From Sarea resinae (taxonomy: Eukaryota): a stretch of 64,000 bases of DNA. Below the pieces are notes generated by a model. The model had not been told where the DNA came from, did no database searches, and saw only the letters and a list, made by a program, of their open reading frames with translations. Where the stretch lies: NCBI GenBank assembly GCA_026026165.1, contig JAPEUD010000027.1, forward strand, positions 1 through 64,000. Direction: 5' to 3'. Position numbers and translations under genes: made by a program. Below are positions 5,458 to 56,472 of the stretch, one piece after another. Position 1 is the first letter of the stretch. Each line of letters begins with the position of its first letter.

Positions 5458-7839
5458 ATGGACAGGCAACCCGCATATTCTCTGAGTATCTTCCCCGTCG
5501 ATGAGGGGGGGCCGGCGGACTCGCGTGGTCACATCCAGGCACAGTTGCGCGAATTCGTTCTGGAGTTCCGTCTGGACAATGCATTCATATACAGGTAAGT
5601 TTTCCCCTCGAGTCTCAACGAGATCGCCCATTCTAAGACTTCTCTAGAGATCAAATTCGAGAAAATGTGCTCATAAGACAGTACTACTGCGACATCGACA
5701 TCGCACATCTCATCACATATAACGAAGAATTAGCCCATCGTCTAACATCAGAACCTGCTGAAATCATTCCTTTGGTATGTCGAAGTGTGGCCTTCGCAAT
5801 CAACCTTACTGACGGGGATGTCCACCAGTTCGAAGCAGCCCTCAAGCAATGTACTCAGCGCATCGTCTATCCCTCTCAAAGAAATATCCCTTTACCAGAC
5901 CATCAACTCCTGCTCCATTCGACCGCATCTCTGGTCTCGATCCGTGATCTTGATGCCACAAATATGTCGCATCTCGTACGCATACCGGGTATCGTCATCG
6001 GTGCCTCTACACTTTCTTCAAAAGCCACGACCTTGCACATCCAGTGTCGGAACTGCCAGCATTTCGAAACAATTTCTGTTTCAGGTGGATTCTCAGGAGT
6101 CACTCTCCCCAGAGTCTGTGGCCGGGAGAAAACAAATGAAAACCAGCCCGAAGACAGATGTCCGTTGGACCCTTACTTCGTGGTTCACGAAAAGTGCCAG
6201 TTCATGGATCAGCAGGTCCTCAAGCTGCAAGAAGCCCCAGATCAGGTCCCGGTTGGAGAATTACCCCGACATATCTTAGTTTCGGCCGAACGCTACCTGA
6301 CCAATCGAGTGGTTCCTGGTTCGAGATGCACAATAATGGGCGTCTTCTCCATCTATCAGTCTAAAGGTTCCAAAGGATCGTCGAACTCAGCCGTCGCCAT
6401 TCGCAATCCGTACCTCCGAGCCGTTGGGATTACAACAGACGTCGATCATACAGCCAAGGGCAATGCGATCTTCTCTGAGGAGGAGGAACAGGAGTTCCTC
6501 GAGATGAGCAGGAGACCGGACCTTTACGAGGTCTTTGCCAATTGCATAGCGCCGTCCATCTATGGCAACCAGGACATCAAAAAGGCCATCGCCTGCCTAT
6601 TAATGGGCGGCTCCAAGAAGATATTACCCGATGGAATGAGACTACGTGGAGACATCAACGTGCTATTACTAGGAGATCCAGGAACCGCCAAGTCTCAGCT
6701 CTTAAAGTTCGTCGAGAAGGTCGCTCCTATAGCCATCTACACATCTGGCAAGGGTTCTTCTGCGGCTGGTCTGACAGCATCCGTACAGCGGGACTCCTCC
6801 ACGCGGGAATTCTATCTCGAGGGCGGAGCAATGGTTCTCGCTGATGGGGGCGTTGTATGCATTGACGAGTTTGACAAGATGCGCGACGAGGACCGAGTAG
6901 CCATCCACGAAGCCATGGAACAGCAGACCATCTCCATCGCAAAGGCCGGCATCACAACCATCCTGAACGCGCGAACCTCGGTCCTGGCAGCCGCCAACCC
7001 CATCTTCGGCCGCTACGACGACATGAAGACCCCCGGCGAGAATATCGATTTCCAGACCACAATTCTCTCCCGTTTCGACATGATCTTCATAGTGCGCGAC
7101 GAGCATGAAAAGGGCCGCGACGAGCGCATAGCCAGACACGTCATGGGCATCCACATGGGCGGCCGCGGTATCGAAGAGCAGGCCGAAGCCGAGATCCCGG
7201 TGGATAAGATGAAGCGGTATATCAGCTATTGCAAATCGTGAGTCTCCTTCTCTATCCCTCCCTCCTTTCCACCTCTACCTACTTAATTCCTACAAACTAC
7301 CTTTTCAATTCTCCTCACCCAACCATCCACTGACTTTGGCCCACAGAAAATGCGCCCCTCGTCTCTCCCCCGAAGCAGCCGAGAAACTATCCTCGCATTT
7401 CGTCTCCATCCGACGTCAAGTCCACACCACGGAAATCAGCAACAACGCGCGCTCCTCGATCCCCATCACCATCCGCCAGCTGGAAGCGATAATCCGGATC
7501 ACGGAATCGCTGGCCAAGCTATCGCTGTCGCCCGTGGCAACCGAAGCCCACGTCGACGAAGCCATCCGCCTCTTCCTGGCCTCCACCATCGACGCCGTCA
7601 ACCAGGGTACCGACCAGGGCAGCCAGGAGCTGATGGCAGAGGTCGGCAAGGTCGAGGAGGAGCTGCGGAGACGCCTGCCGATCGGCTGGAGCACGAGCTT
7701 GGCTACGCTGAAGAGGGAATTCGTCGATGGCAGGGGTTATAGCGAAGCCGCGCTCAATCGGGCTCTGGTCGTGCTGCAGAGGAGGGATACGGTGCAGTTT
7801 CGGGCACAGGGCGCGCAGGTCTTTAGGAGTGGCATGTGA
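5458..7839 (+). CDS. MCM5: DNA replication licensing factor Mcm5; exons 5458-5594, 5648-5774, 5829-7237, 7347-7839
   Basis: MCM box ([23 protein letters not shown]), Mcm5-type [17 protein letters not shown] and [16 protein letters not shown]; three canonical introns. Confidence 0.96.
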
Positions 7840-10584: not shown

Positions 10585-12240
10585 ATGAATGCAGTCATAG
10601 AAGAACAGAGATTTCTCCATGAGGATTTGGAGAGGCTGGAGCAAGCTATAAGTGACCGCGTCGCGCAAGATCCAAAAAATGTAAGTCTTTCATCCGCCAG
10701 CTTTCACTTGCGCATGTTTGGAAGCATGGTTCGAATTTTTCCTCATGCTCATCGGTTATAGGTCCGGGATCAGATGAATCGTGATCATGAGGTTGCTGGA
10801 TTTCTCCGGAGGATACAAGATCAGTCAAGACGCCTTCTCGACATCTATCAAGACGCGGACGGAACTCGCGCGCAGGAAATCCAGAATATCTCTACCGGTG
10901 ACCCCTTCACACAATTCTACAAGCAATTCAATGAGATAAAGGACTTTCATCGACGATATCCGAACGAGCCAGTCGAGAACTTGGAGCGCGCATACAAGCC
11001 GAAAGTGCCAGTAGATGGCGAGTTCTTCACGGGCGTTGTCGACAATATGTTCACGGGAGAAGAGTCATACGGCCGATTCATGGATCTAACAATGTTGCAC
11101 GAGCAGTATCTCAACCTGCCAGGAGTTGGAGGAGTCAAGAGGCCATCTTATCTTCAATACCTAGATATCTTCGACGTTTTTACAGAGCCACAATGTCCCA
11201 TCAAGAAATCCGACAAAATGACAGATAAATACTTCAGATACGTTGGAGACCTAGCATCTTACCTCGAAGGCTTCATGAAGCGAACGAGGCCATTAGAGGA
11301 TCTAGAGAAGCTCTTCACGAGCTTTGATGCCGAGTTCGAGAAGGCATGGGAAGCCAATGAGGTACCAGGCTGGGGTACCGAGGCCCAAATGGCAGGCCCA
11401 CAGACCGAAGGATCGGGAGAGGGGATATGGTGTCGCGAGTGTGAGAAGGAATTCAAGAATGAGAACGTGTACAGAAACCACCTCACGGGCAAGAAGCACA
11501 TACGAGCAGCTGAGGCCAAGAAGGCACACGCGAATGGAGATGCTGTCGATGACGCTGATAATGGTACTGCGAATGGTCGGGGAAACTCGGTACAGAAATT
11601 GAAGGAGCGTGCAATCGCCGAACGGGAGTTCCGAGTGCGCAAACTTGCAGGCGCAATGCAAACACAGCGCAGCGATACTCGTGTGAATGTCGAGCGAAGA
11701 CAAGGGATGACGGAACGAGAACGACAGATGGAGCTTGATGCGCTCTTTGCTCAGTCTGACGAACCTGCAACTCGAGGAGGTGACGAATCTGACTCCGAGG
11801 GGGAGGAAAAGATCTACAATCCGCTCAAACTTCCTCTGGCATGGGATGGAAAGCCGATCCCATACTGGCTCTATAAGCTCCACGGACTTGGCGCGGAGCA
11901 CTCTTGCGAGATTTGCGGCAACTTCGTCTACATGGGCCGACGAGCGTTCGACAAGCATTTCAATGAGGCGCGACATATCTATGGACTAAAATGCCTGGGG
12001 ATCACCAATACCACATTATTTCGCGAAATCACCGGTATCGAAGATGCACTAAAGCTCTGGGACAAGATCCAGAGAGATAAGAAGAAGGAGAAAATGAGCA
12101 CGGAGAATGTAGTCCAGATGGAGGATGCCGAGGGCAACGTAATGCCTGAAAAAGTCTACTATGAGTAAGTCGCTCCTTGTTTTTCGAGAACTATGATCCG
12201 TACTGACCTTACCAGTCTCCAAAAGCAGGGCCTGTTATAA
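10585..12240 (+). CDS. PRP9: U2 snRNP splicing factor SF3a subunit 3 (SF3a60/Sap61); exons 10585-10680, 10762-12164, 12216-12240
   Basis: N-terminal EEQRFLHEDLERLE; YNPLKLPLAWDGKPIPYWLYKLHGL; zinc finger CEICGN..FDKHFNEARH; C-terminal DLQKQGLL. Confidence 0.95.
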
Positions 12241-20091: not shown

Positions 20092-21516
20092 ATGACGACC
20101 CACGCTCCAATGTCTTCTCCGAGACAGCCATTCGGCGTTCTCGATTCTCCTCGGCGGAGCAAAATTGCAAGCCTGAAGAACCGTCAAAATGGTATGCATG
20201 CAACGTTCTGAACCATCGAACCTTTGCGATGATCTTTGGCTGCAAATGTGGAGTTCTTACATGACTTCGCAGCTCTGCCATATTCTCTCTCTTCTCCCGT
20301 CAAACGCCGCCGTTCGCCCTCATCCACGGCCTTCGATGACTTCGACTCGGAGAATGTTGATCCCTCGATGTTCATGTCCCCGAGCAAGCGTGCGAAGAAC
20401 GTCGACGGTCTTCCCACGAAAAAGTCACACTTCGTCTTGACTGATGCTCCGTCCACTCCTTCGCATTTGAAACCCTCTCCTGCTCGTCCTATTGCCAGGT
20501 CGACTGTGCGACTTGACTCGCCTCGAGCTCCGCTCGGCCAGAAACGCAAGGCTTCTCCAGTGCCGTCTGTCCCCACTCCAGCCGCTGGTCGGTCACCGAA
20601 GAGCAAACGAATCGGCATCTTGTCTCGGCACCGCACTTCGTCACCCTTCACTCGGGTCGATCCTCCGACATATTCTCAGTCTCGGAATCGCAGTTCTATG
20701 CCGTTCTCAATTGACGCAGCCCTGGGAGGTACTATCTCTGGTTACAAAGCCCGTCGAGAATCAAAACCGCTTCAACAGATAACTGTGCCAACCCTTGAAG
20801 AGTCTGTTCCCAAAGGATGGATATTCGAGATATATGAGGACACTGCAGACGAGGAGATGGCGAACCTGATGCAGCACTCGACCTATACGCTCGACATCTC
20901 GGATGATGAGAGCCGTCGTGCTGGTAAGGACGAAAGAGGAAAGGAGAATATCCCGCCCCTTGATCACACGCCAACGCCCACGTCTGTCAACAGCTCTACG
21001 AGCGAGCCAGCTATGTCACCAGTCGATGCTGGGGTGCGAATGAAGACACGGCGCTCAGCAAAGTCAATGATGACCGATGACGAACGCGCTCCGTTGGGGA
21101 ACCTTGCGCCTGAAGACTTCTACGCCGATGGACTCGATGCCTCCTCGTTTGTGTTGGTGCAGGACGCCCCAACAGGGAAGTCTATAATCTCTCGTGAGGT
21201 CAAAGAACCATCTTTCGTCACGCCACCACGGCCCAGAATCAACCCCCTCGCTTCGAAGAAGGACGAGCAGAAGGACTTCTTGGAGAGCTTAGAAGGTACT
21301 ACTCGACGACGCAGTGCGCCTACGTTTCCGGCGCTCGAACGGCAGGAAAAGACGGATGAGATCTTAATCTGGGAGAGCAGCTCGGAGGCTAGCACCGCCA
21401 CTGAGATTGAAGAGTGCGCTCAGCGTGCCAGCGGCGGCGCTTCCGAGATGGATGCTGAGAATGCAGATCCTTCGAGAATGGAGGGAAAATCCGATCCCGA
21501 TGTGTCGATGGCGTAA
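20092..21516 (+). CDS. Disordered S/T-P-rich protein with ABBA, KEN and D-box motifs (Acm1-like APC/C regulator candidate); exons 20092-20191, 20273-21516
   Basis: Long ORF plus upstream exon (MTTHAPMSSPRQPFGVLDSPRR..KNRQN) joined by an 81-nt GT..AG intron. FEIYEDT at 20824-20844, KEN at 20941-20949, RAPLGNL at 21085-21105. Confidence 0.75.
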
Positions 21517-23029: not shown

Positions 23030-25810
23030 TCAATGCCATACTTTCTGAGCCGGACCTCCGCGCGCCCATTCCAATCTTTCCGCCAATATCTCCCAGCAAG
23101 GCTCTCCACCAGCTCGGCTCACGCCCCGCAATCCCGCGCCCACAAAATTGCAGAGCCGTTCAAACTGTTCCCGCATCTTCCGCAATCGATCCGCGAATGC
23201 CGTCTCTTGGAAGGAGATATAACTCGTGTCGGCCTCGCCATGTTCCTCGTCATCGTCATCTTCAGAGGACGAGGAAGGCTCGGCATGCGAATTTGATGGC
23301 CGTCTGCGGCGACGAGGTCGCGCTTGACTGATGAAGGAAATCATGGAGCGATTTGTTGTATCGAAGAACTTCTCGCCCGCGTAGCGGGCCTGAGCATCTG
23401 AGAAAAGAATGGTAAGGTCGAGTAGGGAGATGATGGACTGATGGATCGGTGCCAGCTTTTTCGAAAGGAGACATTGATCTAGGAGACGAGAACTGAAAAG
23501 TTCGTGAGCGGCTATTATTGAGTCGACGTCCTCGGCCCCAGCTATGGAGTTGCGCATTTCTGCCGTAGCCATCGTGAGAACATGCTCGGTCATATATGTA
23601 TAGAGAGTGTTGGTGAACCACAGGAGTCGGTGACGCAGCAGCAGAGACAGACTCTGTTCTTCCTGGTCCAGAGGTCGCGAGTCAAAGTCTAGAAGGCGGA
23701 ACCGCTCAAGGATGCTCTTTGCACGGCGAATCTGTAGTAGAAAAGTAAAAACTGATTGATATACAGTGAGAGATTTGGCGTTGACAATGTTAGCAAGTGG
23801 CCAAGGTAGCTGCATGGTCAGGTCAGCTATATGAGGAAGCATAATATTCAGAAAGTTCAGGTGGCCTACCATATAGTCTATTGAGACGCTGCCTAGTATC
23901 TTCACCGACCGCCGCCGGTTCTGCACATCTCTATATCCCCCAACCTGCGATCGAATTGCTAGTCTGTCTTCATCGATGCTTTCAACGGCTGCAAAAGTAC
24001 CTTGGAGGAGATCGGTCAGGAAATAGCGGTCATTCCAAGCTTTCTTTCCTCGATCGATCCTGTCGTAGATTATCTGAGCAACGTTGCCCCGTAAAGCACC
24101 GTCTTTGAAGAAGTAGACATATTCTAAAGCATCCAAGACTCTCCACAGGCCGCACTGTGAAAACAAATGCTGTCGTAAGATACAGGAGGCTGAATGATGC
24201 TTAGTGTTGACCCAACGATCGAAAGCGCTATTAAAGAGCTCAGAGAAGGGTGCTAAAGTAAAAGACGACTTAGGATCTATTACGGTATCATAATTTAGAT
24301 CCAGTCCCGTCTCCCAGAGAGCATAATCTTCGAGGAAGACTCCAAGCTCTCTTAGGAATATCACACTCTTCCCAGTTGTGAAGATCCTGTTAGAAGAAGC
24401 GGAAAGGAAGTTAGGGGCATGCAGCCGCCCAAATTCGTTTCGCTGAACGTAATATCGATCATGCCAGAGCGCACTGAGTTCAGGTTGTCCTGCGGCCGGC
24501 CTAATGAAGAAGGACTGGTCGTGTGGGGAGAGCTCTCCTCTTTCCATCCACAAACTTATCGGCTTTAGATATGTCTCAAAGCAATCGAAGAACAAGCGTC
24601 CCATGAAATCAAACCTATCATCATCTCCAGTCATTTGTAGTAAACATGTTCTGTCGAAAAGGGCCTCGAGGAAGAGGAAGGAGTCATTCTGCGAGCTCAC
24701 AGATAACTTGCCGATGAGCTCTGCAAGCTCTAGCATACGCATGACGCTAGGCTTCAGGCGATGGGAGGTTTCGGTCAAGCTAACGACTTCACCCTCTGGT
24801 GAACCTAAGAAGCCACTCTCGAGCTTAGCAAGGACGCTGGCAAATTCCCTGATCCGCCGATTTACGGCTGCCCTTAAGGTCTGTAGTAAGGACGTTGACT
24901 GCTCCCTCTTAGTCCACATTCGAAGTCCGTTGATTTCCGTGCCAATATCCGCAAATGAGCGGAGGACGTCGTGGAAAGTGTCCTGAGAGGAATGCCGCAT
25001 AGCATATTTGCTGTTAATGCTAATGATTCCCGAGCGGGCGTCGATGTTGAAAAGGACTGTTGGAAGGCCGGACAGCATGAAGAGTACCTCTTTGACGGCT
25101 TGTAGTTCGGTGACGAGCCACGAGTCCTTTGAACTCTCGGAAAATTGGTTCTGGACGCGATCTTGAGGCTCGAAGAAGACAGGATTGTTCCAAAATTGCA
25201 ATCTTGAGAGATCATTGACGCCTTGATCATTTGGATTGACAAGAAAAGCAGCAGCCTCAAAGTCATCCTCAACTATCGAGGAAGCCTTGGTATCATTCAT
25301 ATCAGTGGACTCATCCAGACCAATGCTGTCATTCCGTTCGTCATCTTCAGAGCTGTCAGCGCCATAGTCAATGTCGTCCCATATCCCCTCTTCATCTAGC
25401 GGATCGTCCGCGATGATCTCGGACCATGTCAGCGGAGGAGGTGGATCTGGCGGCTTGAGAGATTCCAACTTCTCTAAGCCAGAGTTGATTGCCGGCCTAT
25501 CTGAGAGATGGAGCAGCAACAGAAGCGTTTCAGGCGTCCATCTGTTGTTTCTTGCGGCCAATTCGTCAAGCCGCTTTCGGAGGGCATCCGCCACCGCGTC
25601 CTGATTCAAGACCTGGAACTTTTCTTCCAGTCCTTCCAAGCGGCGATTGACATCGAACGGGTCCGTACGACCGAAATTGTGGTGCTTCAAGCTTCGAGAC
25701 GTGAAGTCCCGACATAATCTGAAGTTACGCGGATCGCTCTTGTCCGAAAGACCGGTGATGAGCGTAATGAGCTCGTCCGTGAGGACATTGATCCTGATAG
25801 CGGGGGCCAT
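23030..25810 (-). CDS. GCP5: Gamma-tubulin complex component, Spc97/98 family, GCP5-like; in-frame intron 23869-23810
   Basis: 926-aa ORF. N-terminus HNFGRTDPFDVNRRLEGLEEKF resembles fungal GCP5/Mod21; GRIP-like segments EVLFMLSG, IFTTGKS, LPWPL..YQSVFTFLLQIRRAK. The 60-nt intron GTAGGC..GCTGAC..CAG preserves the frame. Confidence 0.85.
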   Translation of the reverse strand: MAPAIRINVLTDELITLITGLSDKSDPRNFRLCRDFTSRSLKHHNFGRTDPFDVNRRLEGLEEKFQVLNQDAVADALRKRLDELAARNNRWTPETLLLLLHLSDRPAINSGLEKLESLKPPDPPPPLTWSEIIADDPLDEEGIWDDIDYGADSSEDDERNDSIGLDESTDMNDTKASSIVEDDFEAAAFLVNPNDQGVNDLSRLQFWNNPVFFEPQDRVQNQFSESSKDSWLVTELQAVKEVLFMLSGLPTVLFNIDARSGIISINSKYAMRHSSQDTFHDVLRSFADIGTEINGLRMWTKREQSTSLLQTLRAAVNRRIREFASVLAKLESGFLGSPEGEVVSLTETSHRLKPSVMRMLELAELIGKLSVSSQNDSFLFLEALFDRTCLLQMTGDDDRFDFMGRLFFDCFETYLKPISLWMERGELSPHDQSFFIRPAAGQPELSALWHDRYYVQRNEFGRLHAPNFLSASSNRIFTTGKSVIFLRELGVFLEDYALWETGLDLNYDTVIDPKSSFTLAPFSELFNSAFDRWVNTKHHSASCILRQHLFSQCGLWRVLDALEYVYFFKDGALRGNVAQIIYDRIDRGKKAWNDRYFLTDLLQGTFAAVESIDEDRLAIRSQVGGYRDVQNRRRSVKILGSVSIDYMVGHLNFLNIMLPHIADLTMQLPWPLANIVNAKSLTVYQSVFTFLLQIRRAKSILERFRLLDFDSRPLDQEEQSLSLLLRHRLLWFTNTLYTYMTEHVLTMATAEMRNSIAGAEDVDSIIAAHELFSSRLLDQCLLSKKLAPIHQSIISLLDLTILFSDAQARYAGEKFFDTTNRSMISFISQARPRRRRRPSNSHAEPSSSSEDDDDEEHGEADTSYISFQETAFADRLRKMREQFERLCNFVGAGLRGVSRAGGEPCWEILAERLEWARGGPAQKVWH

Positions 25811-26299
25811 TTCCTAGCTTATTTTCGAGGGTCTTAATACATGTTGCGGAGTCTTTGGTGTTTTAGGCTTTTGGTCCGCGCGCCGCGCGGTGTTCTTCGA
25901 TATCATCGTGTTCCTGGGGTGTACGCAGTAAACGGATCCATCTTTAGGGAGACGCGACGACTCGCTTCATCTGGTAATACTTTGTACTTTGTACTTCTCT
26001 CTGAAAATTGACGGTCCCTCAGGTAGGACCGTTAATTTTTCGCTTATGTAAACAAGTACGTACTACTAGATTATGTAATCCACTATTCATGTAAATCTTT
26101 AAAGTTCCTAAAAGATTTATTCACCTAAGGTAGGTAGGTAGGTATTCCTTAACTACTAGGTATATATATAACACCTCTCTCTCTCTCTTCTCTTTTTTCT
26201 CTAACTAAAAACACTACTACTACTACTATAACTACTACTTTGCTATACTCTACCTTTCTCTCTCTAAAAATTTTTTTTAAAAGCTATAAAATAGAATTT

Positions 26300-28600
26300 A
26301 AATATAAGTACTTCTCTAGCTAATAGCTTTATAGCTAGCACCTCTTAACATTGCAAACTATAACTGCTAAGTAAGTTTATTTTCTTATTAAATGCTTAAC
26401 ATTAATTTTCGATATTTTTAAAGTTTTACTTTTCTTTTTTTCAGAATTTTCAAAGCTTTTCTTCCTTGTATTTTACAATTCTTCTGCCTTTTTTTTCATA
26501 ATTTTTGCAACTTTTTAACCTTTTTTCAAAATTTTTAAAATTTATTTTTTTGTTAATTTTCAGAATTTTCAAATCCTAACTTTAAAATAGCTAATACAAA
26601 GCAGCCTATAAGGCTTATTAGAGCAAGGATACCTGCCTAGACTTAGAGGATATAGACAGTCTCTTTATAGAAGAACTTCTTAGGTAAGCTTTTAACTTTC
26701 TTTATCTAGTATTTATTTATTTAATAGAATTTTTAGAAATTACAAATATTATGCTAATTAATTTTTTAGATACAACTTCTAGGTTAAGGATTGTAAGAGC
26801 TTCTCTCTTTATTACTTATACTAGGCCTTAAACACCTCTTACCTTATAGAAGTAAAAGAGCCTCTTAGCTTTAACAATAAGGACTTGCTAAAGTGTAGCT
26901 ACCTATACAAGGTAAGTCTAAAAAATTTCAAATTTTTCATTAATTTTTAAAAATATTGAATTTTTCTAAACTTTTAAGATTTTTAAAATTAATGTCTAAC
27001 TCTAATGTAGCTATCTGCCTTTAAGATATAGATAGTTATACAAAAGATAAGCAGGTAGGAAAACAACGCTAAAGTAAGTATAATTTTCTATTTAATTCTT
27101 TTTTTTCTATTTCTTTTCTATTTTTTTCTTTTTTTTTAATTTTTAAAATTTACTAAATTTACTTTTATAGTACCCTAACACTATGTTACAGAAGACTAAA
27201 AATGCTATATAGGATGCAATAAAGATCCTATATAGTGGCAATTTTATAGTTAGAATGCTTTTCTCTCTAATAAGCTATAGATAAGCTATAGAATAGGCAC
27301 TAAAGCGTAATATCCTTAAGGAAATATAGGTAGCTAGTAGATAGCCTCTCTACTTATATTTTTAGAAATTTATAAAAATTGATAATCTCTACTCTTAATA
27401 CTATAACCTGTGAATTAAGGCTTAATATATAGAATTTTAAATAAGTAGATATTTTAAGAATTCTAAAATATAAAATAAGGAAAGTAATTTAAGATTACTA
27501 AAAATTAACTGAGCTTAAATTAGCTTACATAATACAATTTCTTTGAAATTCCCTTAAATCTTTTACCCTACTCTACTACCTATCTACTAGCTATTTCACA
27601 TTATATCTATTAACTATAGCCTTTGTTTTAATCTCTTATATCTCTTATTATAACTTAGACATATAAGTATACCTCTAGAAAGACCTTAGTAGGATAGGAT
27701 ATAAAGACTCTAAGGAAGATAACTGTATTGTAAGTAAAACAAAATACTTTAATAATGTTAAAGATCTTAGATTCTTTAAGATTTCTAAGAATTAATCTTT
27801 AGATTTAGCTAGAGAAAGAAAGCTTATATAGCTTGTTAGAGAAAGAATGCTTACTCTTCTCTTAATAGTAAGGATTCTAAAGAACAACTTAGGTAAGATT
27901 ATTAAATTCTTTCTTTTAATTTTTAGATATTTCAAAATTTTTAAGACCTAACCTATCTCTTTCTACAAGGTAAATTTCTAAGTAAGAGAAAGGAAATCCT
28001 TCTCTCTTTACTAGTTCTATTAGACCTAGAATGCTACTCGCTCTATTAATAAGAATAAGCTAAAAGAGATAGATAAAGAGAATTACTTAAAGTGCAGATA
28101 CCTCTATAAAGTAAGTCACTATCTTTTAAGATTGTTAAAGATTTACAGAAATCACAAATTTTAAAAATTAATATATTGCCTTAAGCCTATCCTTAAATAA
28201 TACAGTATCTCTTATACTAATAGCTTTTAGCCTTCTATGCTTAAACTTTAGATAAAGGATAATAATCTTATGCCTATAGTAAGGATCTCTTTCTACAGTT
28301 CTGTTTATAAAGATATCTAAAATTTGTTTTTTAATATTCTTAAATTTCTCTTTTAGCAATATCTAATATTCTTCTAGAATCCTAAGACTATACACTAAGG
28401 TGTAAAGCTTGCATTTTAGGCTACTTTAGTAGCCTTATATAGAGAGTTTAATGTTTTAATACTCTTTAATACTTAACTATATACTAGCACAATTCTTAAG
28501 AGAATTATAGAAAGGATTATTAAGGATATAGTACCTTCTAATCCTATTATAAAGGAAGAGAAAGAGAAAGAGGATATAGAGGAAGTATAATAGCGTATTT
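26300..28600 (+). pseudogene. RIP-destroyed multi-exon gene of unknown family inside the large element
   Basis: GTAAG donors at 26371, 26684, 26912, 27074, 27893 and 28111, most followed by CTAA[CT] branch sites and AG acceptors (e.g. 26590, 26769, 27010, 27170), with higher-GC exon-like spacers. Confidence 0.5.
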
Positions 28601-29577
28601 TTATAATTTCTAGTTTTCTCTACTCTACACTTCTATTTTTCAGCATTTCTTTTTATATTAGTTAAAAGTTTTGTTAGTAGTATACTAATAAATTCTGATT
28701 TTTTTTAGGTAAAAACAAAAAACAGAAATCAAAAAAAACGAAAACGCAACTAGAAAGATTGCTAGGATTATCTTGATTCTAAAGGTTATGCTTATAATAT
28801 TAAAGAGAATAGATTATATAAAATTAATGCAAAGAGTCTAAAAGAAACTAGTATAATGTTAGATTAATTTGCTTAAGAGTTTCCTAATACTGTAGTAGTA
28901 AAGAGTTAGAGAAGAAATATTAAACAAAGAATAAAAGAAAAGTAGATAGTAGATTCTTTAAGATCTTTAAAATATATAAAGATGTTAAGATCTTTAGAAT
29001 CTTTAAATCTTATAGATATTAAAATCTTTAAAACTTTTAAGACTAAGTATAATTATAAGATCTACTATAATGCTAACAATATTTCTCTATCTAACTTTAA
29101 GGATTTAAAAAATCCTCTTATCTATAGATTAGGTTATTGTTATAGCTTAATAAATAACATATAATTATAAGATTGTTAAAGTTTATACTCTACCTACTCT
29201 AATCACATAATTTTTAAATAGGCTATCTTTTTTCTTATACAAAATATTAGCACCTCTCTCTTTAAAATAAATAGGTCCTATATAGTGTTAGATTAATCCT
29301 AATATCTAGGAGGTTATAATAAAAGGCTTCTAAAAATTGCTTACTTATCTAGAAGAAAATAGTATTAGACAATATTTAGATATTCTAAAAACAGCTATTT
29401 AAGTATTTTAAAAAACTTATAAGAGGCTTATTCTCTAGAACAACCTAATTATATAATGTAACTTAACAGAATAGATAGCTCTTTATAATTCTAGCATATC
29501 TTATCTACTTAAGTAGAGTATAAACTAGATAGAGATATTTATCTTCTCTATTCTAATAGAGATAAAAGAGTTAAATC

Positions 29578-29886
29578 TATAAGAGCTACTACTAATAGAG
29601 GTGCTGTATAGAGTTTAGCGCAGCGTAGGGTAACTACCTAGTGTAGTTTAGCAACGTTTAGGTAAGCTAAGCAGAGTTATTAGTTATATAGATTAATAGA
29701 GGCGCTAGCTATTAGGGCTAGCGTTTAGTGCAATTACAAAGTCAGTGCCTACTAGCAATATCTATATCTATAGTATTAGTTTTATATCGCTAGAGTGACA
29801 CTAGCACGCTGCAATGCACTAGCCTATTTAATCATGCTATTCCTACCTACTCTACTATAGCTAGAAGCCTAGGAGGTAGTCTAACA
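29578..29886 (+). repeat. 5' LTR of chromovirus copy 1
   Basis: Matches 36665-36973, 56158-56466 and 58499-58807 apart from C>T/G>A changes; termini TA(from TG)..CA. Confidence 0.93.
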
Positions 29887-32800
29887 ATTCTAAACGCTCT
29901 ACTAACACAGCAGTAGACTAGGCGAGATAGTGACAATAAATATATATAATACTCTAAGGGCTCTTAATACTCTACTAGGTGAAAGAGCTAATAGAGACAA
30001 TAGTAAGACAGTAGCAAGCTAGGTAGAAGGCGAGGTTAAGGAGCCTGTCTCTAACTAGATCACTAATTAATTGCTAGACTAAATACAGTAAGAGTATAAC
30101 GCTAAAGAGCAGTAGGCTTAATATTGTTGACTCTAGAGAGAGATAGCCTAGTTCTATATAAAACAGCAACTATAAGCACTTGTATAAGTATTGCAGCTAG
30201 GATAAGGCCTTGCAGCCGCTACGCTAGCACCTTGTATCACTAACTAGACTAAAATCTAAGCTCTAGAGCTATTTACAAGCAAGACAATTAAGGAGTATAA
30301 TGAATTTATCTGATCCTATAAGATAGCGTTCTAACTAGGAGCTATTACAGACAAAAGTGATAATATAGCAAAGGTGCTATATGCTATACAGTACCTAAAA
30401 GACGAACTAGCGCTAGTATAGCACTAGGTTAAAGAATCTACTAAGAAAGACACTTATACCTAGGATAAATTTGTCTTATTCCTACTAGACTAAGTAGAAG
30501 ATCTAGTAAATTAGAGTGGTTTAATATTACAGCTATACTATAACGCTACACAAGGGCCGCACTAGAGCATTAATAGCTTTATAGCTTTCTTAGAACAGAT
30601 TAAACTAGAAGTGCTAGAAGGATAAGACATCCTTAAAGAGCAGCAATACAACTTGTTCTATACTAAGATCTAAAGTAAAATTTACTAGGAACTGCTCTAA
30701 ACTCTGCTAATACTACAAAAGTAGAGCGCTGCTATAGCGTCAGCAAATTAAGTAGAGGAACTCCTTTATATAAGTAATAAAGAGAATAAGAATAAGAACC
30801 TTAATCTATCTAAGCTAGATAATAAGCGATAGTATAGCGATAGTGTAAAGAAGAGAAAGAGTTAGAATAAATAAAGAACTAAATAAAAGTTTAATCCTAC
30901 TAAACATAAGGGCAAAAGCCTACCTCTATAAGAACAAAAAACTTCTGCTTAGCCTAAGGATAATAAAGGCAATAAGTCTATATAGTAGCCTTAACAGCTC
31001 TCTAATAAGGAGTATTGCTACAGGTAAGAAGGCAACCTTTACCTAAACTATAGCTAAGAGAGCTACTTTGCTTCTACTTGTAAGAACAAACGCAACAATA
31101 AGCCTACGCTAGCTTTATAACTAGAGCTAGAACCCTACACTATTTGCTATCTTAGTATAGGAGAATCTTAAGGAGCTCTAACTCTAAGATTAGAGACGTC
31201 GCTAACTATTTACACCTCTAGTAGTACAGCAGATAGCACTACCTTAATTGATTTAGAAGCAGAAGCTTCTCTAGTTTTGCAATCATAGATTAAGGAGTAT
31301 AGGATCTCTAAGGATAAGCTTAGGCAGCTACCTAGCGCAGTGATAGTAAACAGCTTGTAAGTAGCGATCTATAGCTAACACTAATTAGAAATACAAGTCG
31401 CTAATAGTAATAGTGTAAGGAAGACAGTGTAGTGCTAGTTCTTTACCTACAACTTTAATAGTCCTCTATTCTTACTTAGGTATCTATAGCTGTCCTTATA
31501 CCGCTACAATATGCGTTAGTTAGAAGGTAAATTTAGCTACGTTAAGCCTATAGATAAGCCTAGGCTTAGTAAGGAACATTAGAAGAAACATTAGCTAAAC
31601 TGCTAAGGGATTATAGTAGTGCCTAAACCTATAGAGGCAGTGAAGCTTTGCTAGGTCAGCGCTAGTAATAAGATACCTAAACAGTATAAGGAATTTGCTT
31701 CTATCTTTAGCAAAGAGAAAGCTAGCTAACTTCCTAAGCATAGCCTAGCTAACTATGCTATTAAGTTAGAGAGTAAAGACTCTCTCTATAGTCTTATATA
31801 TCTATTATCCTAGAAAGAATTAGGTATTCTACAGACCTACCTAGATAATAGCTTAGCAAAGAGGTAGATTACTCTCTCTATAAGCCCTATTAGTGCGCTA
31901 ATCTTATTTGTGCCTAAGAAGGATAGTAGCTTACAACTTTACATTAACTACTAGGCGTTAAACAAGGTCACTATTAAGAATCAATACCTATTACCCCTTA
32001 TTTCTAAGCTTATAGACTAAATAAGCAGTGCTAAAGTTTTTTTAAAACTAGACCTAAAGGATACCTACTACTATATAAGGATCTGCAAAGGCGACAAGTA
32101 TAAGATAGCGTTCTGCACTTATTACAGCTAGTTTAAATATAAGGTTATGCCCTTTAGATTAGCTAATGCACCTGCTACATTTTAGAGCTATATTAATTAT
32201 GCGTTATAAGGCCTAGTTAATGTCTGCTGCGTTATCTATCTAGATAACATTCTTATATACTCTAATTCACCTAATAAGTATAAGAAGTATATACACTAGG
32301 TCCTTAAACAGCTATCAACCTATAGCCTATATATAAAGCCCTTAAAATGTGTCTTTAAAGTGTAGGAAGTTGATTTCTTAGGATTTGTTATTAGGACTAA
32401 TAGTATCGCGATAGAGAAGAGCTAGGTAGACACTATAAAAGAATAGCTAGCCCTTAAGACCTATTATAACCTCTAAGTCTTCCTAGGATTTACAAATTTC
32501 TACTAACAGTTTATAGAGAAATACTTTGTTAAAGCGCTGCTATTAACTAGCCTGCTTGCTAGGAGTAAGAACAGAAAGAAAAGCAGTCTATTCTACTTCT
32601 CTAAGGAAGCTAAAGAAGCATTTAAAGCCCTAAAAGAAGCTTTTACAACGGCGCCTATACTGCGCTACTACAATCTAAAGAGGCAGATATAAGTAGAAAC
32701 TAACGCTTCTAGATTTGCTGTTACAGCAATTTTATCCTAGCTAGTCAAGGATAAACAAAGTGTAACAACAGCGTTAAGGTAGCACCTAGTTGCATACTAG

Positions 32801-35589
32801 TCTAGAAAGCTTACTAATACTAAATTAAGATATAAAGTGCATGATTTAGAGTTGCTAGCTATTGTAATAGCTTTTAAGCAATAGCACTACTACTTAGAAA
32901 AGGCTAATTACCCTATTAAGGTCTTAACTAACTATGTAAATCTACGCTACTTTATAACAACAAAGGAGTTAACCTATTGCTAGGCTAGATAGGCTAAACA
33001 GCTAGCAGCGTATGATTTTAAACTTATATATAGAGTAGAGAAAGCTAATCTAGCTAATAGGCTGTTGCAGCGCCCTAATTACAAGGTAAAGACATAGGGT
33101 CTAGAAGTAATGCTTTTTACTTTGTAGCAGAAGCTGCAGAACCTGTGTATATTAAAGAGAGATAGCACTGCGCTAGTGATCTAAAACCTTCTTACTAGAA
33201 CAGATAATAAGCATTTAGGCAAAATAGGCGCTAATACACTAAAGGATAATATGCATCTATAAGGGATTAAAAACCTCTCTAGGTTAGAGGATAACACTCT
33301 ACCTACTATTAATAAGCGATAGCAGCGCACTAGGATAACACCTAGTTTAAGCGCAAAGGATAATGTGTATCTATAAAGGATTAAAACCCCTTCTAGGTTA
33401 TAGGATAACACTTAGCCTAATATTAAAGAGCAATAGAGAGGCACTAGAGTGACACTTAGGCCTAGCCTAAATAACAATGCTAATAAGCTAGTATTAGGAG
33501 ATAAGTTTAAACACCTCTATATAAGACAAGTAGTGCATAAGGCAGCTGCTAATAAAAGAGTGTATAAGCTGCTAACAGGCTAGCTGCTTAATATTATCCT
33601 TAGGACTTAGTAAGAAGATTATTTCGCTAAGGAAAAGATTAAAAGCATTCTTACTAAGGAGGTTACAGGCTAAGAAAAGTAGAAAATAGACTCTATAGGC
33701 CTGCTGCGCCTAGAAGGCAAAGCATATATGCTGTGTAATACAGCTATTAGGTTAGAAATTATAAGAATAAACTATAATAACTTGTTTAGTAGCTACTTTA
33801 GTGCTAAGAGAATAACAAAGGTAATCTAGTGTAAATACTAGTAGACTAATTTAGCTAAGGATGTTAAAGAATATATTAATAAGTGCGATATATATTAAAG
33901 GGTCTAGGTGCCTAGGCATCGCCTATATAGCGAGCTATAGTTGTTACCTATGCCTTACTAGTTGTTTAAAGAAATCACTATAGATTTTATTACAGGCCTA
34001 CTACTAAGCAACATAAGAGATTATAAGGCCTGTGATATAATAATAGTAGTAGTTAACTGCTATACAAAGATAGCAAAATATACTCTATACTAGACGAATC
34101 TAAATGCCGCTATACTTGCAGACATATTTATTAATATTATAACAACAGTGTATAGCAATCTAAAGCGCATTGTATTAGATAGAGGCAGTGTATTTGCAAG
34201 CAAATTTTAGTTAGCTATATGCTATTAAATGCGAATTAAGAACTAGCTTAGCACTGCCTTCTACCTGCAGATAAATAGCTAGACTAAGAGGTAAAACTAG
34301 ATGTTAGAACACTACTTATAGTGCTATATAAGCAGCTGCTAGGACGACTAAGCCTTGCTGTTACCTATAGCTAAGTATGCATACAATAATAGCATACATT
34401 TATCTATAGCAATGTCACTCTTCTATGCTCTATATAGCTACAACCTAGATCTGCAACTTAATATTATAGACAATGCTATAGAGAGAGAGGTGCTAGCAGC
34501 GAATAAGCGCCTTAACATCCTCTAAGAGGTAAGATAAAGACTAGAAGAGGATCTTACTAAGGCATAGCAGTACTAAGCTAAGTAGTATAATAGGAAACAT
34601 AAGCTAATGCAATATAAAAGAGGCGATAGAGTTATACTATTAGCGCGCAACCTTAGCACTATACACCTAAGTAAGAAGTTAGAACACTGCTATATAGGCC
34701 TATTTGTAGTATTTAACCTTGTAGGCAAGCAAGCCTACTAGTTATAGCTCTCTAAGGCTTATAGATCTATCTATCTTATATTTTATATATCCTTACTTAA
34801 GCGCTACTACAGCGATAGCAATACCTTAGACTAGCACTTTAAGCTAGTTAATAGCTAGGTTAAGTAGATTGTTAAGAAAATCCTAGGCTATAGAGTACTT
34901 AAGAGAGAGTGATAATATCTAGTTAAGTAGAAAGGAGCTCTAGTAGATAACACTAGCTAGGAGCTAGCAGAACACCTAGCAAACGCTATAGACCTAGTAT
35001 AAGATTATAAACAGCACTTACTCTCTAACTAGTATAGAGGCCTAGCGAACAAAGAATAGGATGCTAGTGTGCTATTAACTAAGCCTTATAGTTAACTAAG
35101 GAAGCGACTACTTAGTGATAGCGCTATAGAGGCGACAGCTAAGAGGCTAAGAGGCTGCCTAAGGAAGAATCTACTACTCTATAAGGAACCTCTAGCTAGC
35201 CTAGAGATGCTAGTAACAAAACGCCTACAAGGAAGGCTATAGAAGTATAGCCTAAAGCTATAGGTAATTGTAAGAAGAAGACCTTACAGCTGTCTTAGAA
35301 AGGACACGCTGTTATAGCACTAGTAAAGAGCTGTTATTAGAACTCTTTCTACCTCTTTTACCTACAAAGGTTTTTAAGTGGTTTTAGCAAGCTAATGTAG
35401 AGGTAGGCTTGTAATGCGATTGCATGCTAATAGTGTACAGTCTCTATAGAAGGCTATTAGGCTATAGGGCTACAATGCTACAGTTATAAGAGGAGATAAA
35501 GTTATAAAAAAGAAAGTGAAATTAAACCTCTAGCGCTATCCTAGCGCGAACCTAAAGCTATCTAGTATACAAAGGAAATAGAAAGAACT

Positions 35590-36255
35590 ACTATCCTATT
35601 ACTAACTGCTTTGCCTTGCCTAGCCCTAACTAGCCTAATTGCTAGACCTCTCTAGAGGTGTAGTTGTATTATTATTATCCTTATCCTTACTCTTACTAGC
35701 GCGTGTGATTAAAGGTAGGTCAAACTATAAGCTTTAGTTAGCGCAGCCCTAAGCTAGTAATAAGCTAGGCTAGCTTATAGTATAGCAAAGAATGTTATTC
35801 AGTCTCTTAACACTGTTAGCTAGGCGCTTAGTAGTAATAGCAATGTGTAGAGCGTTGTCTAAGGGATAGCAGTTAGTAGTATTAATATAGGCTTTAACGC
35901 TCCTTGTAAAACGCCGCTGTTTAGCTTAAAGAGCACCTAACACAGGCTCTTTAGCTAGGTTATTGTCTGTAAAAGCTGCTACTACATCTGCTGCTTTAGC
36001 TAGCTAATTAAACTACTTATAGAACTTATACAGCACTTGTGCAGAGCCTAGTTAGAGCCTGCCTAGAGCTATATTAAGAGCATTGCTTACTTTATCGCAC
36101 TTCTTATAGAGCTAGGCGCAGCGTGTACACTTTGCTAAGGAGCTAGGACAACTGCACACAATGTCTAGGATAGCACTAAGGCACTTAGCACAGCGTAGAT
36201 AGAGCTCTTAATAGAGCTTAAGAGGCTCTTTTAGATTTAGATAGGGCTTATACAT
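35590..36255 (-). pseudogene. Antisense accessory gene relic in the chromovirus 3' region, six-cysteine (Zn2Cys6-like) domain, one intron 36090-36037
   Basis: ATG at 36255; minus-strand translation (Y<C)LRCAK..VCS..KCTRCA*LYKKCDK; GTAAGC donor and CTAAC branch site; downstream exon continues in a coding-like frame. The 3' end is approximate. Confidence 0.6.
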
Positions 36256-36664
36256 ATATAGCAGAATAATAGAGGCGCGATTAAGAACGTTTATAATAGG
36301 TAGATAAGTATATAGAATGTACCTAAAAACATAGTGCAAAAAGTTTAATTGTGCGCGCGCGCACTAGATCACCTACGTTTTATACCTACACACCTATAGC
36401 TAAGCGACCTCTAAGCGATAGAGAGAATGCCTAATACAGACAGTTTAAAGCATTTACTCTGTCTATTCACTGCTACTACTCTAGCGCAGCGTTTAGCAAA
36501 CTAAGCAAATAGGATAAAGAACTCTCTTTATTATCTATACAAATTCACTAGTTGCAGCAAATAGCAACGCTACTAAGGCGCTAGCGAGATAAAGACTTAA
36601 CACTATAATGTTATACATTGCGAACAAAGGACTTAGAGGACTAGGTCCTAAGAGAGGAGGTAAT

Positions 36665-36973
36665 TATAAGGGCTACTACTAATAAAGGTGCTGTATAGAG
36701 TTTAGCGCAGTGTAGAGTAACTACCTAGTGTAGTTTAGTAACGATTAGGTAAGCTAAGTAGAGTTATTAGTTATATAGATTAATAGAGGCGCTAGCTATT
36801 AGAGCTAGCGTTTAGTGCAATTACAAAGTTAGTGCCTACTAGCAATATCTATATCTATAGTATTAGTTTTATATTACTAGAGTGACGCTAGCACGTTGCA
36901 ATGCACTAGCCTATTTGATTATGCTATTCCTACCTACTCTACTATAGCTAGAAGCCTAGGAGGCAGTCTGATA
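36665..36973 (+). repeat. 3' LTR of chromovirus copy 1
   Basis: Direct repeat of 29578-29886, preceded by the purine tract AAGAGAGGAGG. Confidence 0.93.
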
Positions 36974-39900: not shown

Positions 39901-40527
39901 ATTTAATCTAGGACTATTAATTAGACAATTAAATCTTGCTAGACTTTAGAAATTACAAAAATTTTCGCCTATTATCTTCTAGTGTCTTTATATCTTTCTA
40001 CTCTATAATTTACCTCTAGGTAGTGTAATTCTTAAAAATTTTCTTAAAAATACTAGAATACTACTATTCTCTTTATAAAAATCTCTGGCTTTAATATACT
40101 AAGATTTCGCTCTATAAAGACTAATATTTGAAAATTCTAAGTATAATCCTCTAGCAGCCTAGGTTGTATTACCCTAAGGAATTTCGGCCGAGGGTCACAT
40201 AGGCTTCAGGGGTTACCCGGAGGGGGCTAGGGGCGGACCGGGGGGGGACCGTCAATTTATCGCGGCGAATCCCTACTTCGTACGTCCGAGGTCCTCCAGC
40301 CTGACCTCGTACCTACCCTGTACGGGATCGGAGCTTCTGAACGAAGTTAGAGACAGACGACCCTGCGTAGGGAATAATGCGTAACAGGAATTGTTATCAC
40401 AACGTCCGGCCAGATCTCTTCCGCTCCCACTCTCGACCTCTTTGTCACCTTCTATTGCCTGTTTGAACTCTCCGTCCACCAGGTTCGCCGTTGGCGGCGA
40501 TTCCGGTGGAAGTCTCTTCGTTTCGCC

Positions 40528-56466: not shown

Positions 56467-56472
56467 ATTCTA

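Follow-up and report, generated by a model that had tools for sequence, protein, structure and literature searches.

A conserved Pezizomycotina protein with an ordered ABBA, KEN box and D-box cassette: a candidate pseudosubstrate regulator of APC/C-Cdh1

The gene and its product

The stretch of DNA analysed here (the window) comprises 64,000 nucleotides of the Sarea resinae contig JAPEUD010000027.1. The locus at 20092..21516 on its forward strand is a gene of two exons, not a single open reading frame, and the spliced product is 447 amino acids long:

20092..20191, forward strand: exon 1, beginning with the ATG at 20092 and comprising 33 codons plus 1 base; the splice is identical to that of the NCBI model P0003
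20192..20272, forward strand: intron of 81 nt, GTATGC...CAG; homologues align with the spliced N-terminus
20273..21516, forward strand: exon 2, ending in a TAA stop codon

For this gene NCBI has a model (Sarea resinae M1819_002903) with an identical splice and 100% identity, which starts at the second Met and comprises 441 amino acids. The database name "thymidylate kinase" is wrong for this family of cassette proteins. No Pfam domain is matched by the S. resinae protein, which is predicted to be intrinsically disordered, with an AlphaFold2 model of mean pLDDT 50.4 and pTM 0.21 and an ESM Atlas model of pTM 0.12. A WD40 or coactivator domain is absent from all 14 neighbouring open reading frames that were scanned in the window. 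A previous sequence-only reading of the locus had located a FEIYED string, a KEN box, a D-box and the strings RQPFGVLD and RAPLGQK, and all of them were found in place when checked on the spliced gene, with KEN at residue 257 and the D-box at residue 305 of the 447.

A family of Pezizomycotina proteins

At E<=0.001, the family comprises 621 clusters at 50% identity, of which the best 150 representative matches were inspected. The motif counts given below refer to 467 family proteins, and the profile and Pfam tests to 66 members. Pezizomycotina are represented by at least seven classes among the relatives, which are named from Sareomycetes, Lecanoromycetes, Candelariomycetes, Geoglossomycetes, Xylobotryomycetes, Leotiomycetes, Dothideomycetes and Sordariomycetes; no Eurotiomycete names are among the best 120 matches of each search. 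None of the family matches listed carries a precomputed Pfam domain, and a Pfam scan of the 66 members at E<=10 resulted in scattered single weak matches only. In one of the 66 members, Cyclin_N2, the APC/C-binding region of cyclin A, matched weakly (E 0.19), which was not counted as evidence. The cassette alone (residues 195-330) gave no usable match to named clusters in the ESM Atlas, and a literature search for a characterised homologue in filamentous fungi, either of the Acm1 type or a securin, found none.

The central cassette

The centre of the protein holds an ABBA motif with an adjoining helix, as well as a KEN box plus a D-box:

20818..20844, forward strand: ABBA motif WIFEIYEDT (F-x-I-[HY]-E-D-T), with FEIYED at 20824..20841; W210, F212 and I214 are invariant
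20845..20880, forward strand: predicted alpha-helix adjoining the ABBA motif (AlphaFold2 helix 219-230 in P0003 numbering, in which the ABBA motif is 212-218)
20890..20910, forward strand: acidic block LDISDDE in the linker from ABBA to KEN; LD[IL]S in 451/467
20938..20958, forward strand: KEN box GKENIPP (KENxPP), with KEN at 20941..20949, 39 residues past the ABBA Phe
21085..21111, forward strand: D-box RAPLGNLAP; family pattern R-x-[PA]-L-[GS]-[DE]-[LM]-x-[ATVP]

A KENxP-type motif was found in 466 of the 467 family proteins, and the Asn of KEN is followed by Pro at both +2 and +3 in 418 of them and at +3 alone in another 47, which makes 465 with Pro at +3. In 460/466, an ABBA pattern was found at 25-60 residues upstream of KEN, and the actual spacing is confined to 35-47 residues with a median of 40. 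Its first position is Phe in 460/460, P5 is Glu in 435/460, P6 is Asp in 439 and Glu in the other 21, and P7 is Thr in 420/460. P4 is His in 327 of these proteins, Tyr in 131 and Phe in 2, and His is found at this position also in cyclin A. The helix after the ABBA motif sits in the best-scoring blocks of the AlphaFold2 model (pLDDT 77 and 73). Downstream of KEN, the D-box pattern is present in 463/466 (P6 Asp or Glu in 408, P7 Leu or Met in 446) at a distance of 36 residues in the median, with the 5th percentile at 28. Pro or Ala at P3 and Gly at P5 fit the extended consensus, and P9 is Asn in just one of the 463 D-boxes.

ABBA motif, KEN box and D-box occur together and in this order in 457 of the 467 relatives. 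When the protein was shuffled 20000 times, the single motifs arose by chance in 283 (ABBA), 843 (KEN) and 6118 (minimal D-box) of the shuffles, and all three in the right order in only one. The ordered cassette that the sequence-only reading had claimed thus is real, and with regard to conservation in orthologues, which it had named beforehand as one test of its claim, the motifs are kept across Pezizomycotina. Extended consensus sequences have been described for KEN box, D-box and ABBA motif (PMC5717348, PMC3690534), and judged by sequence the motifs of the family match them, save for the His at ABBA P4 that falls outside the ABBA consensus Fx[ILV][FY]x[DE] (PMC5717348). Mutation of the Asn at D-box P9 has been reported to abolish the destruction signal (PMC5717348), and the near-absence of this Asn in the family leans towards a pseudosubstrate rather than a substrate. 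In the alignments, no columns of this fast-evolving protein with predicted disorder are better conserved than those of ABBA, KEN and D-box, and as these conserved parts are APC/C docking motifs, the protein is a good candidate for a regulator or a high-affinity target of the APC/C.

Conserved elements outside the cassette

Further elements lie on both sides of the cassette:

20122..20145, forward strand: N-terminal D-box-like string RQPFGVLD; in the family RxP[F/L]xx[LVIM], followed by KNRQN
20290..20310, forward strand: CDK site 1, SSPVKRR, full consensus; its K and R are invariant or almost so
20347..20364, forward strand: degenerate KEN-type motif SENVDP (xENxDP); ENxDP in 413/467, with E54, N55 and P58 invariant in alignment A1
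20377..20397, forward strand: CDK site 2, SPSKRAK, conserved
20524..20550, forward strand: second D-box-like string RAPLGQKRK; similar strings in some relatives only
20587..20667, forward strand: basic block GRSPKSKRIGILSRHRTSSPFTRVDPP with the third CDK site; R134, S135 and P136 invariant, GRSP in 404/467
20698..20736, forward strand: PFS[IL]DAAL block, in 338/467; predicted short helix 174-179 (P0003 numbering)
21112..21159, forward strand: extension past the D-box, EDFYADGLDASSFVLV ([DE][FY][YF]x[ED]G..D..S); [FY][YF].[EDA]G in 273/467
21361..21384, forward strand: C-terminal ABBA-like motif ILIWESSS ([FIVL]x[ILV][WF][ED][SDE]); downstream of KEN in 392/467

The two N-terminal strings that had been taken for D-box-like fared differently. 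RxP[F/L]xx[LVIM] is present in 235 of the 235 gene models that keep KNRQN within their first 80 residues, and RQPFGVLD is therefore a family-wide element, though with Phe at P4 (Phe in 232, Leu in 3), whereas RAPLGQK is present in S. resinae but not conserved. All CDK sites of that reading, SPVK, SPSK, SPKS and TPPR, were found, with 16 S/T-P sites in total. Three SPxK/R sites are conserved in the family, and the full-consensus sites have a median number of 3 on the N-terminal side of the ABBA motif and of 0 on its C-terminal side. As to the xENxDP element, NEN and GxENxP motifs have been described to use the KEN receptor (PMC3690534). The basic block also contains an RxxSxP string (R..[ST].P in 253/467), and by their appearance the basic run possibly is NLS-like and the RxxSxP string possibly resembles a 14-3-3 site. 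The C-terminal ABBA-like motif lies close to the end of the protein, the median distance being 18 residues, and the forms FVVFDE, FAIYDE and IQIFADE of Dothideomycetes fit the ABBA consensus in full.

Comparison with Acm1, Mad3/BubR1 and Mes1

The family resembles Acm1 (APC/C-Cdh1 modulator 1) of Saccharomyces cerevisiae in more features than the sequence-only reading had listed. In Acm1, the N-terminal D-box (DB1) is specific for Cdc20 and serves the destruction of Acm1 itself, the D-box downstream of KEN is DB3, there are CDK phosphorylation sites and a 14-3-3 site, and the protein binds the WD40 domain of Cdh1 and inhibits APC/C-Cdh1 without being turned over by it. Acm1 is disordered and the family protein is predicted to be so, both have Ser-Pro-x-Lys sequences of the CDK-site type (PMC3690534), and in both an N-terminal D-box-like motif, an ABBA motif, a KENxxP motif and a D-box follow each other in matching order, with a degenerate xEN motif in addition (PMC3690534). 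The distance from ABBA to KEN, which is 35-47 residues in the family, is 37 residues in Acm1 (F61 to K98, PMC3690534), and also the Glu at ABBA P5 is common to both, which in the case of Acm1 (E65) contacts K333 of Cdh1 and gives specificity for Cdh1 (PMC5717348, PMC3690534). A helix after the ABBA motif is described for the Acm1-Cdh1 crystal (residues 61-80), and one is predicted for the S. resinae protein. There are differences as well: KEN and D-box are 21 residues apart in Acm1 and 36 (median) in the family, the xEN motif is described just before KEN in Acm1 whereas it lies far N-terminal in the family, the family has the extra C-terminal ABBA-like motif and extra conserved blocks, and its ABBA P4 mostly is His. 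With 447 amino acids, the S. resinae protein also is about twice as long as Acm1, which has 209.

A profile of the 66 members was compared at E<=10 with all PDB chain sequences, and no Acm1 was retrieved, nor any securin or sororin chain; the one match of this search is unrelated (E 1.2). In the PDB, 4BH6 comprises Acm1 59-128 (PMC3690534), with the central inhibitory region. As homology to Acm1 thus is undetectable, the S. resinae protein can be an analogue at best, and of the suggested "Acm1 homologue or analogue" the parallel in the cassette is supported and the homology is not, there being neither an Acm1 in the PDB profile search nor a Pfam match. Acm1 has been described as confined to Saccharomycetales (Di Fiore 2016, PMC5179498), and for A. 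nidulans no obvious homologue of Emi1, Acm1 or Rca1 has been reported (Paolillo 2018, PMC6078057); the view that such a protein is uncharacterised outside budding yeasts agrees with what these two sources state.

A KEN box between ABBA-type motifs, at restricted distances and within a disordered stretch, D-boxes included, is known also from Mad3/BubR1, where ABBA-KEN-ABBA is the pseudosubstrate that blocks the degron sites of the coactivator in the mitotic checkpoint complex (PMC5179498, PMC5717348). However, the family has no Mad3/Bub1 TPR domain (Pfam 0/66) and disorder is predicted for the protein, its second ABBA-like motif lies more than 100 residues past KEN and beyond a D-box, and there is no sign of a connection to Mad2 or Bub3 in the family. 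Mes1 of S. pombe is meiosis-specific and comprises about 100 amino acids, and it is not known to have an ABBA motif. It is comparable in that it is a small disordered fungal APC/C regulator with KEN box and D-box, and it has been described as a competitive substrate and inhibitor (PMC3084671).

A possible pseudosubstrate of APC/C coactivators

The motifs, their order, spacing and conservation, the predicted disorder and the lack of a known domain are what was observed, and we infer from the sequence that the cassette by itself quite probably binds a coactivator. The conserved short linear motifs would dock on the WD40 propeller of APC/C coactivators, which may be Cdh1/CdhA and possibly Cdc20. 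The central cassette, consisting of the ABBA motif F-x-I-[HY]-E-D-T with its short helix, KENxPP and the D-box, would simultaneously fill three sites of a single coactivator, namely the ABBA inter-blade groove, the KEN site of the top face and the groove for the D-box, like the central inhibitory region of Acm1, and such a multivalent binding would result in a high affinity. A high-affinity multivalent binding together with a D-box without the substrate-type P9 Asn would make the protein a pseudosubstrate inhibitor or a buffer of APC/C-Cdh1. Inhibition in preference to turnover, and roles of the CDK sites and of the outer motifs, would be further steps of this proposal: the three N-terminal Ser-Pro-x-Lys/Arg sites may bring the protein under the control of CDK and Cdc14, the N-terminal RxPFxxL and xENxDP could be its own degron for a timed removal, and the C-terminal ABBA-like motif may provide a second contact. 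In an alternative geometry, the protein may bridge two coactivators in a BubR1-like manner.

As a whole, the statement that this CDK-site-rich disordered Pezizomycotina protein inhibits or buffers APC/C-Cdh1 as a pseudosubstrate is tentative, and we judge it to fall somewhat short of an even chance. It is possible, but rather doubtful, that the family is the missing pseudosubstrate inhibitor of Cdh1/CdhA in filamentous ascomycetes, in which case it would be an analogue of Acm1 that either arose independently or diverged beyond recognition. What speaks against the proposal is the mostly His at ABBA P4, the Phe instead of Leu at P4 of the N-terminal "D-box", and the lack of homology to Acm1. From the lethality of the pucA deletion it has been argued that A. 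nidulans lacks any further sufficient means of inactivating CdhA at G1/S (Paolillo 2018, PMC6078057), which speaks against a strong independent inhibitor in that organism.

No homologue of Emi1, Rca1 or Acm1 is recognised in filamentous ascomycetes, and with this family a single gene offers itself as a concrete candidate, the defined motifs of which are open to point mutation. Among filamentous ascomycetes are the main model moulds and the majority of fungal plant pathogens. PMC6078057 names as an open point by what means, other than CDK phosphorylation, APC/C-Cdh1 is kept in check. If the binding to Cdh1 holds true, this would be the first pseudosubstrate cassette of ABBA, KEN and D-box known beyond Saccharomycetales and the Mad3/BubR1 lineage, and a clean example of either convergence at the level of motifs or extreme divergence. 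If the protein in addition is an inhibitor, the length of G1 in multinucleate hyphae would be under a control that is gated by CDK/Cdc14.

Alternative roles

Instead of inhibiting the APC/C, the protein may have its main job elsewhere, for example as a regulator of chromosome cohesion or mitosis, and be a multi-degron substrate of the APC/C, the motifs of which time an early and processive destruction as in the case of cyclin A and Clb5. We regard this as somewhat less likely than the inhibitor, and if it were so, the family would still be a new and strongly conserved APC/C target for fungal cell-cycle biology. Cyclin A and Clb5, which are true substrates, have been described to combine ABBA, KEN and D-box in the same way (PMC5717348), and the cassette by itself therefore cannot separate an inhibitor from a substrate. 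There are lysines around the cassette, and the PFSIDAAL, LDISDDE and FYAEGxD blocks as well as the near-C-terminal motif are no degrons; these blocks are not explained by a role at the APC/C only and hint at another partner. Sororin and S. pombe Sor1 are comparable as disordered, KEN-bearing and CDK-phosphorylated proteins that keep a conserved motif close to the C-terminus (PMC11148194), the CDK sites of the family being predicted from sequence. An uncharacterised Pezizomycotina-wide family around Pyrenophora XP_001941430.1, which may be the same family, has been reported as the best fungal match to the Sororin-domain HMM, with a C-terminal match at E 0.089 (Prusen Mota et al. 2024, PMC11148194). 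The features that define Sororin are missing, however: the FGF motif is found in only 4/467 family proteins, a K/R-rich run within 45 residues ahead of the C-terminal motif in only 10/392, this region being acidic with a median net charge of -5.5, and Pfam Sororin in 0/66 members at E<=10. A substrate in general also normally needs the Asn at D-box P9 that is so rare here, and five coactivator-type motifs with constrained spacing seem excessive if nothing but the time of degradation had to be set.

It is improbable that the family represents the securin of Pezizomycotina, i.e. an APC/C-degraded pseudosubstrate inhibitor of separase. Securins (Pds1, Cut2, PTTG; PF04856) are likewise disordered proteins with KEN box, D-box and a conserved acidic Glu patch, and conserved Glu residues are present in the family within the E-D-T-x string of the ABBA motif and within the WES motif. 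A Pezizomycotina securin family has been seeded on Chaetomium globosum XP_001225358.1 (Cromer et al. 2019, PMC6690013) and may be the same family, and in an ESM Atlas feature search an Ascomycota cluster was found at rank 12 (score 0.77, a lead only), 55% of the members of which have PF04856. This same cluster, with proteins of about 307 amino acids, also is an argument to the contrary, as it carries PF04856 and a separate securin family thus probably exists. In the family, PF04856 was matched by 0/66 members at E<=10 and no Pfam domain is on the listed matches, the degrons are central and not N-terminal as in securin, and an LPE motif is lacking at a distance of 11-14 residues downstream from the E-D-T-x string. 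Securin has been described to run along separase over about 85-115 residues (PMC6858450, PMC10317155), whereas the family has no such long conserved C-terminal segment after the candidate pseudosubstrate Glu, its last conserved motif being so close to the end of the protein. On the basis of these comparisons, the readings as securin and as sororin fail the tests on their defining features, which makes both less probable.

It is very improbable that the motifs are there for some partner different from the APC/C and look like degrons by coincidence, as, although short motifs are degenerate, with a minimal D-box in nearly a third of the shuffles, and the "ABBA" P4 is mostly His, three independent motif classes fit their extended consensus in a known order and spacing that arose in one of 20000 shuffles, and just these three are what is best conserved in an otherwise fast-evolving disordered protein.

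A family of putative multi-degron proteins in filamentous ascomycetes

The gene considered here encodes a member of a protein family of filamentous ascomycetes that, judged from its sequences, is probably a multi-degron ligand, and perhaps one of the pseudosubstrate type, of the APC/C coactivators (Cdh1/CdhA, possibly Cdc20). This family has not been described before in the literature found, and a literature search returned no paper on it. The gene is organized as follows:

20092..21516, + strand: gene of the candidate protein, ATG at 20092 to TAA stop at 21514..21516
100 bases from the ATG at 20092, + strand: exon 1 of the spliced model
20192..20272, + strand: intron GTATGC...CAG, 81 bases, between exons 1 and 2
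up to the TAA at 21514..21516, + strand: exon 2; the spliced product has 447 aa

In the database, the same gene is found as 'hypothetical protein M1819_002903' of Sarea resinae (Sareomycetes; 441 aa), with an identical splice and the second Met as start. The protein consists of 14% Ser and 10.5% Pro, contains 16 S/T-P sites, and no Pfam domain was detected in it by a Pfam scan. It is predicted to be disordered almost throughout, as the AlphaFold2 model (66-sequence alignment) reached a mean pLDDT of 50.4 and a pTM of 0.21 with four short helices only, and the ESM Atlas model a pTM of 0.12.

The sequence-only reading had proposed an Acm1-type inhibitor on the basis of an ordered cassette of ABBA motif, KEN box and D-box, and these motifs are indeed present, with FEIYED at 20824, KEN 39 residues further at 20941, and the D-box RAPLGNLAP at 21085. 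Also the N-terminal RQPFGVLD (20122) and the SPxK/R sites are where they had been placed. The string RAPLGQKRK, which had been read as D-box-like and N-terminal, exists at 20524-20550 but is not conserved in the family; a related R[SA]PLPKLST occurs near the same position in several Leotiomycete members. When the protein was shuffled 20,000 times with its composition kept, the ABBA pattern arose in 283, KEN in 843 and a minimal D-box in 6118 cases, and the ordered triad once.

Distribution and annotation

With the exon-2 product as query, 895 proteins were retrieved at E<=0.001 (8000 candidates scored), and a profile of 66 members, picked for spread among the best 120 of these matches, detected 621 clusters (50% identity), including 372 at E<=1e-30. 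The matches listed belong to Sareomycetes, Lecanoromycetes, Candelariomycetes, Geoglossomycetes, Xylobotryomycetes, Leotiomycetes, Dothideomycetes and Sordariomycetes. Of two divergent members used as queries, one had Sordariomycetes among its listed matches (including Fusarium, Colletotrichum, Verticillium, Metarhizium and Lasiosphaeria), the other Mycosphaerellales and other Dothideomycetes (including Zymoseptoria, Cercospora, Fulvia and Hortaea). Eurotiomycete names do not occur among the best 120 matches per search, from which neither presence nor absence in that class follows. The family is fungal apart from P0437 and P0439, two members that nr attributes to cork oak (Quercus suber). Their nearest relatives are Dothideomycetes, and they look like fungal contamination in a plant assembly.

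The matches listed are labelled exclusively 'hypothetical', 'uncharacterized' or 'thymidylate kinase', the latter being the name of the family in many UniRef and NCBI records. None of the 66 members scanned had a Pfam match better than E 0.029, and none had a convincing one, be it to a thymidylate-kinase or to another domain. An identity as thymidylate kinase is therefore spurious, and the name a propagated mis-annotation.

Conservation of the motifs

Motifs were counted in all 467 proteins returned by the four family searches, a redundant set (with e.g. many Colletotrichum and Hortaea sequences) in which every member was selected by full-length similarity. A KEN box that has Pro at +2, +3 or both is present in 466 of the 467 (both Pro in 418), an ABBA pattern precedes it by 25-60 residues in 460/466, and a D-box pattern follows in 463/466. 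The ABBA motif has Phe at P1 in 460/460, His (327), Tyr (131) or Phe (2) at P4, Glu at P5 (435), Asp (439) or Glu (21) at P6, and Thr at P7 (420). In the 463 D-boxes, P3 is Pro/Ala in 440, P5 Gly in 299, P6 Asp/Glu in 408 and P7 Leu/Met in 446, whereas P9 is Asn in a single one and, with few exceptions, Ala, Thr, Val or Pro in the others. ABBA and KEN are 35-47 residues apart (median 40), and the distance from KEN to the D-box is more variable (5th percentile 28, median 36). The full triad occurs in order in 457/467 proteins, and in the ten remaining members the gene models seem to be truncated or mis-spliced. Nearly all invariant columns of the 66-sequence alignment fall in cassette motifs or CDK sites. 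A lack of conservation in orthologues had been named beforehand as a possible refutation, and in view of the triad counts and the invariant columns within the motifs, this refutation fails.

Further elements accompany the cassette. All 235 models that retain the N-terminus have RxP[F/L]xx[LVIM] followed by KNRQN (P4 Phe in 232), and three full-consensus Ser-Pro-x-Lys/Arg sites lie N-terminal to the cassette (median 3 before ABBA, 0 after). A helix is predicted directly after ABBA, in the best-scoring part of the AlphaFold2 model. A motif xENxDP, with the spacing of KENxxP but no Lys, is found in 413/467, and its E, N and P are invariant in the 66-sequence alignment; NEN of Acm1 and GxENxP of Xkid are reported to bind via the KEN receptor (He et al. 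2013, PMC3690534). Additional conserved blocks are PFS[IL]DAAL, LD[IL]S-acidic and, after the D-box, [FY][YF]x[ED]G. A C-terminal [FIVL]x[ILV][WF][ED][SDE] is present in 392/467, at a median of 18 residues before the protein end, and its variants in Dothideomycetes, FVVFDE, FAIYDE and IQIFADE, match the ABBA consensus completely.

Likeness to Acm1 and proposed mode of action

As described by Alfieri et al. 2017 (PMC5717348) and He et al. 2013 (PMC3690534), the D-box consensus is RxxLx[D/E][hydrophobic]xN[N/S], a KEN box has a Pro within the next three residues, and ABBA motifs, Fx[ILV][FY]x[DE], bind between blades 2 and 3. Acm1 contacts Cdh1 by F61, Y64 and E65, of which E65 (P5) pairs with Cdh1 K333 and thereby confers Cdh1 specificity; a helix extends from ABBA as far as residue 80, the KEN box occupies 98-100 and has its Pro at P103, DB3 starts at R119, and the N-terminal D-box DB1 leads to anaphase destruction by Cdc20 (PMC5717348, PMC3690534). 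The family mirrors this plan, with an N-terminal D-box-like motif, ABBA with P5 Glu and a predicted helix, KENxPP about 40 residues further, and then the D-box. The central cassette is therefore read as a multivalent ligand, which by analogy would occupy one coactivator propeller. Mutation of the P9 Asn of a D-box is reported to abolish the destruction signal, and P9 and neighbouring positions face Apc10 (PMC5717348); the near-complete lack of Asn at P9 in the family thus leans towards a pseudosubstrate role. By their fit, the serine SPxK/R sites would be phosphorylated by CDK and dephosphorylated by Cdc14, for which a preference for pSer-Pro-x-Lys/Arg is described (PMC11407943).

The sequence-only reading had the protein as a divergent homologue or analogue of Acm1. 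It shares the motif-level features of the Acm1 cassette, but when PDB sequences were searched with the family profile, none of the Acm1 chains was retrieved at E<=10, which is why we do not assign it to the Acm1 family. The protein may work like Acm1 without being an Acm1. Di Fiore et al. 2016 (PMC5179498) describe the Acm1 ABBA motif as confined to Saccharomycetales, and Paolillo et al. 2018 (PMC6078057) state that A. nidulans has no obvious homologue of Emi1, Acm1 or Rca1. The latter authors argue as well that CdhA inactivation in this species depends essentially on PucA-CDK, which weighs against a strong independent inhibitor there.

Alternative functions

It is possible, though somewhat less likely, that the protein is an APC/C substrate with another function. 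Cyclin A and Clb5 are reported to carry the same three motif classes, and a role in APC/C binding only leaves several conserved blocks unexplained. Such a function could be sororin-like, as a Sororin-domain HMM matched the C-terminus of an uncharacterised Pezizomycotina-wide family (Prusen Mota et al. 2024, PMC11148194), but FGF occurs in just 4/467 members, a K/R-rich run ahead of the C-terminal motif in just 10/392, the stretch there being acidic (median net charge -5.5), and none of the 66 members scanned had a Pfam match to support it. Quite improbable is an identity as the Pezizomycotina securin, a family described by Cromer et al. 2019 (PMC6690013; seed Chaetomium globosum XP_001225358.1), as PF04856 matches 0/66 members while 55% of the members of an Ascomycota cluster in the Atlas (~307 aa) carry it, the degrons lie mid-protein and not N-terminally, and there is no long conserved C-terminal segment like the one with which securin is described to line separase (PMC6858450, PMC10317155). 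Coincidence of the motifs is very unlikely because of the shuffle test and the motif conservation.

Genomic surroundings

Five neighbouring genes were identified by Pfam, with no APC/C component among them:

1384-4290, - strand: Vps54
5637-7839, + strand: MCM5, in two ORF pieces and thus with an intron
10762-12168, + strand: SF3a60/Prp9
23030-25813, - strand: gamma-tubulin complex GCP5/Mod21, adjoining the candidate gene downstream on the opposite strand
51592-55179, + strand: hybrid histidine kinase

No ORF of at least 180 aa was found from 25814 to 41016, and AT-rich blocks extend over 26001-40000 and 56001-58000 (GC 0.23-0.37 versus about 0.5 elsewhere). Such an AT-rich, ORF-poor pattern is typical for RIP-degraded repeats in Pezizomycotina genomes.
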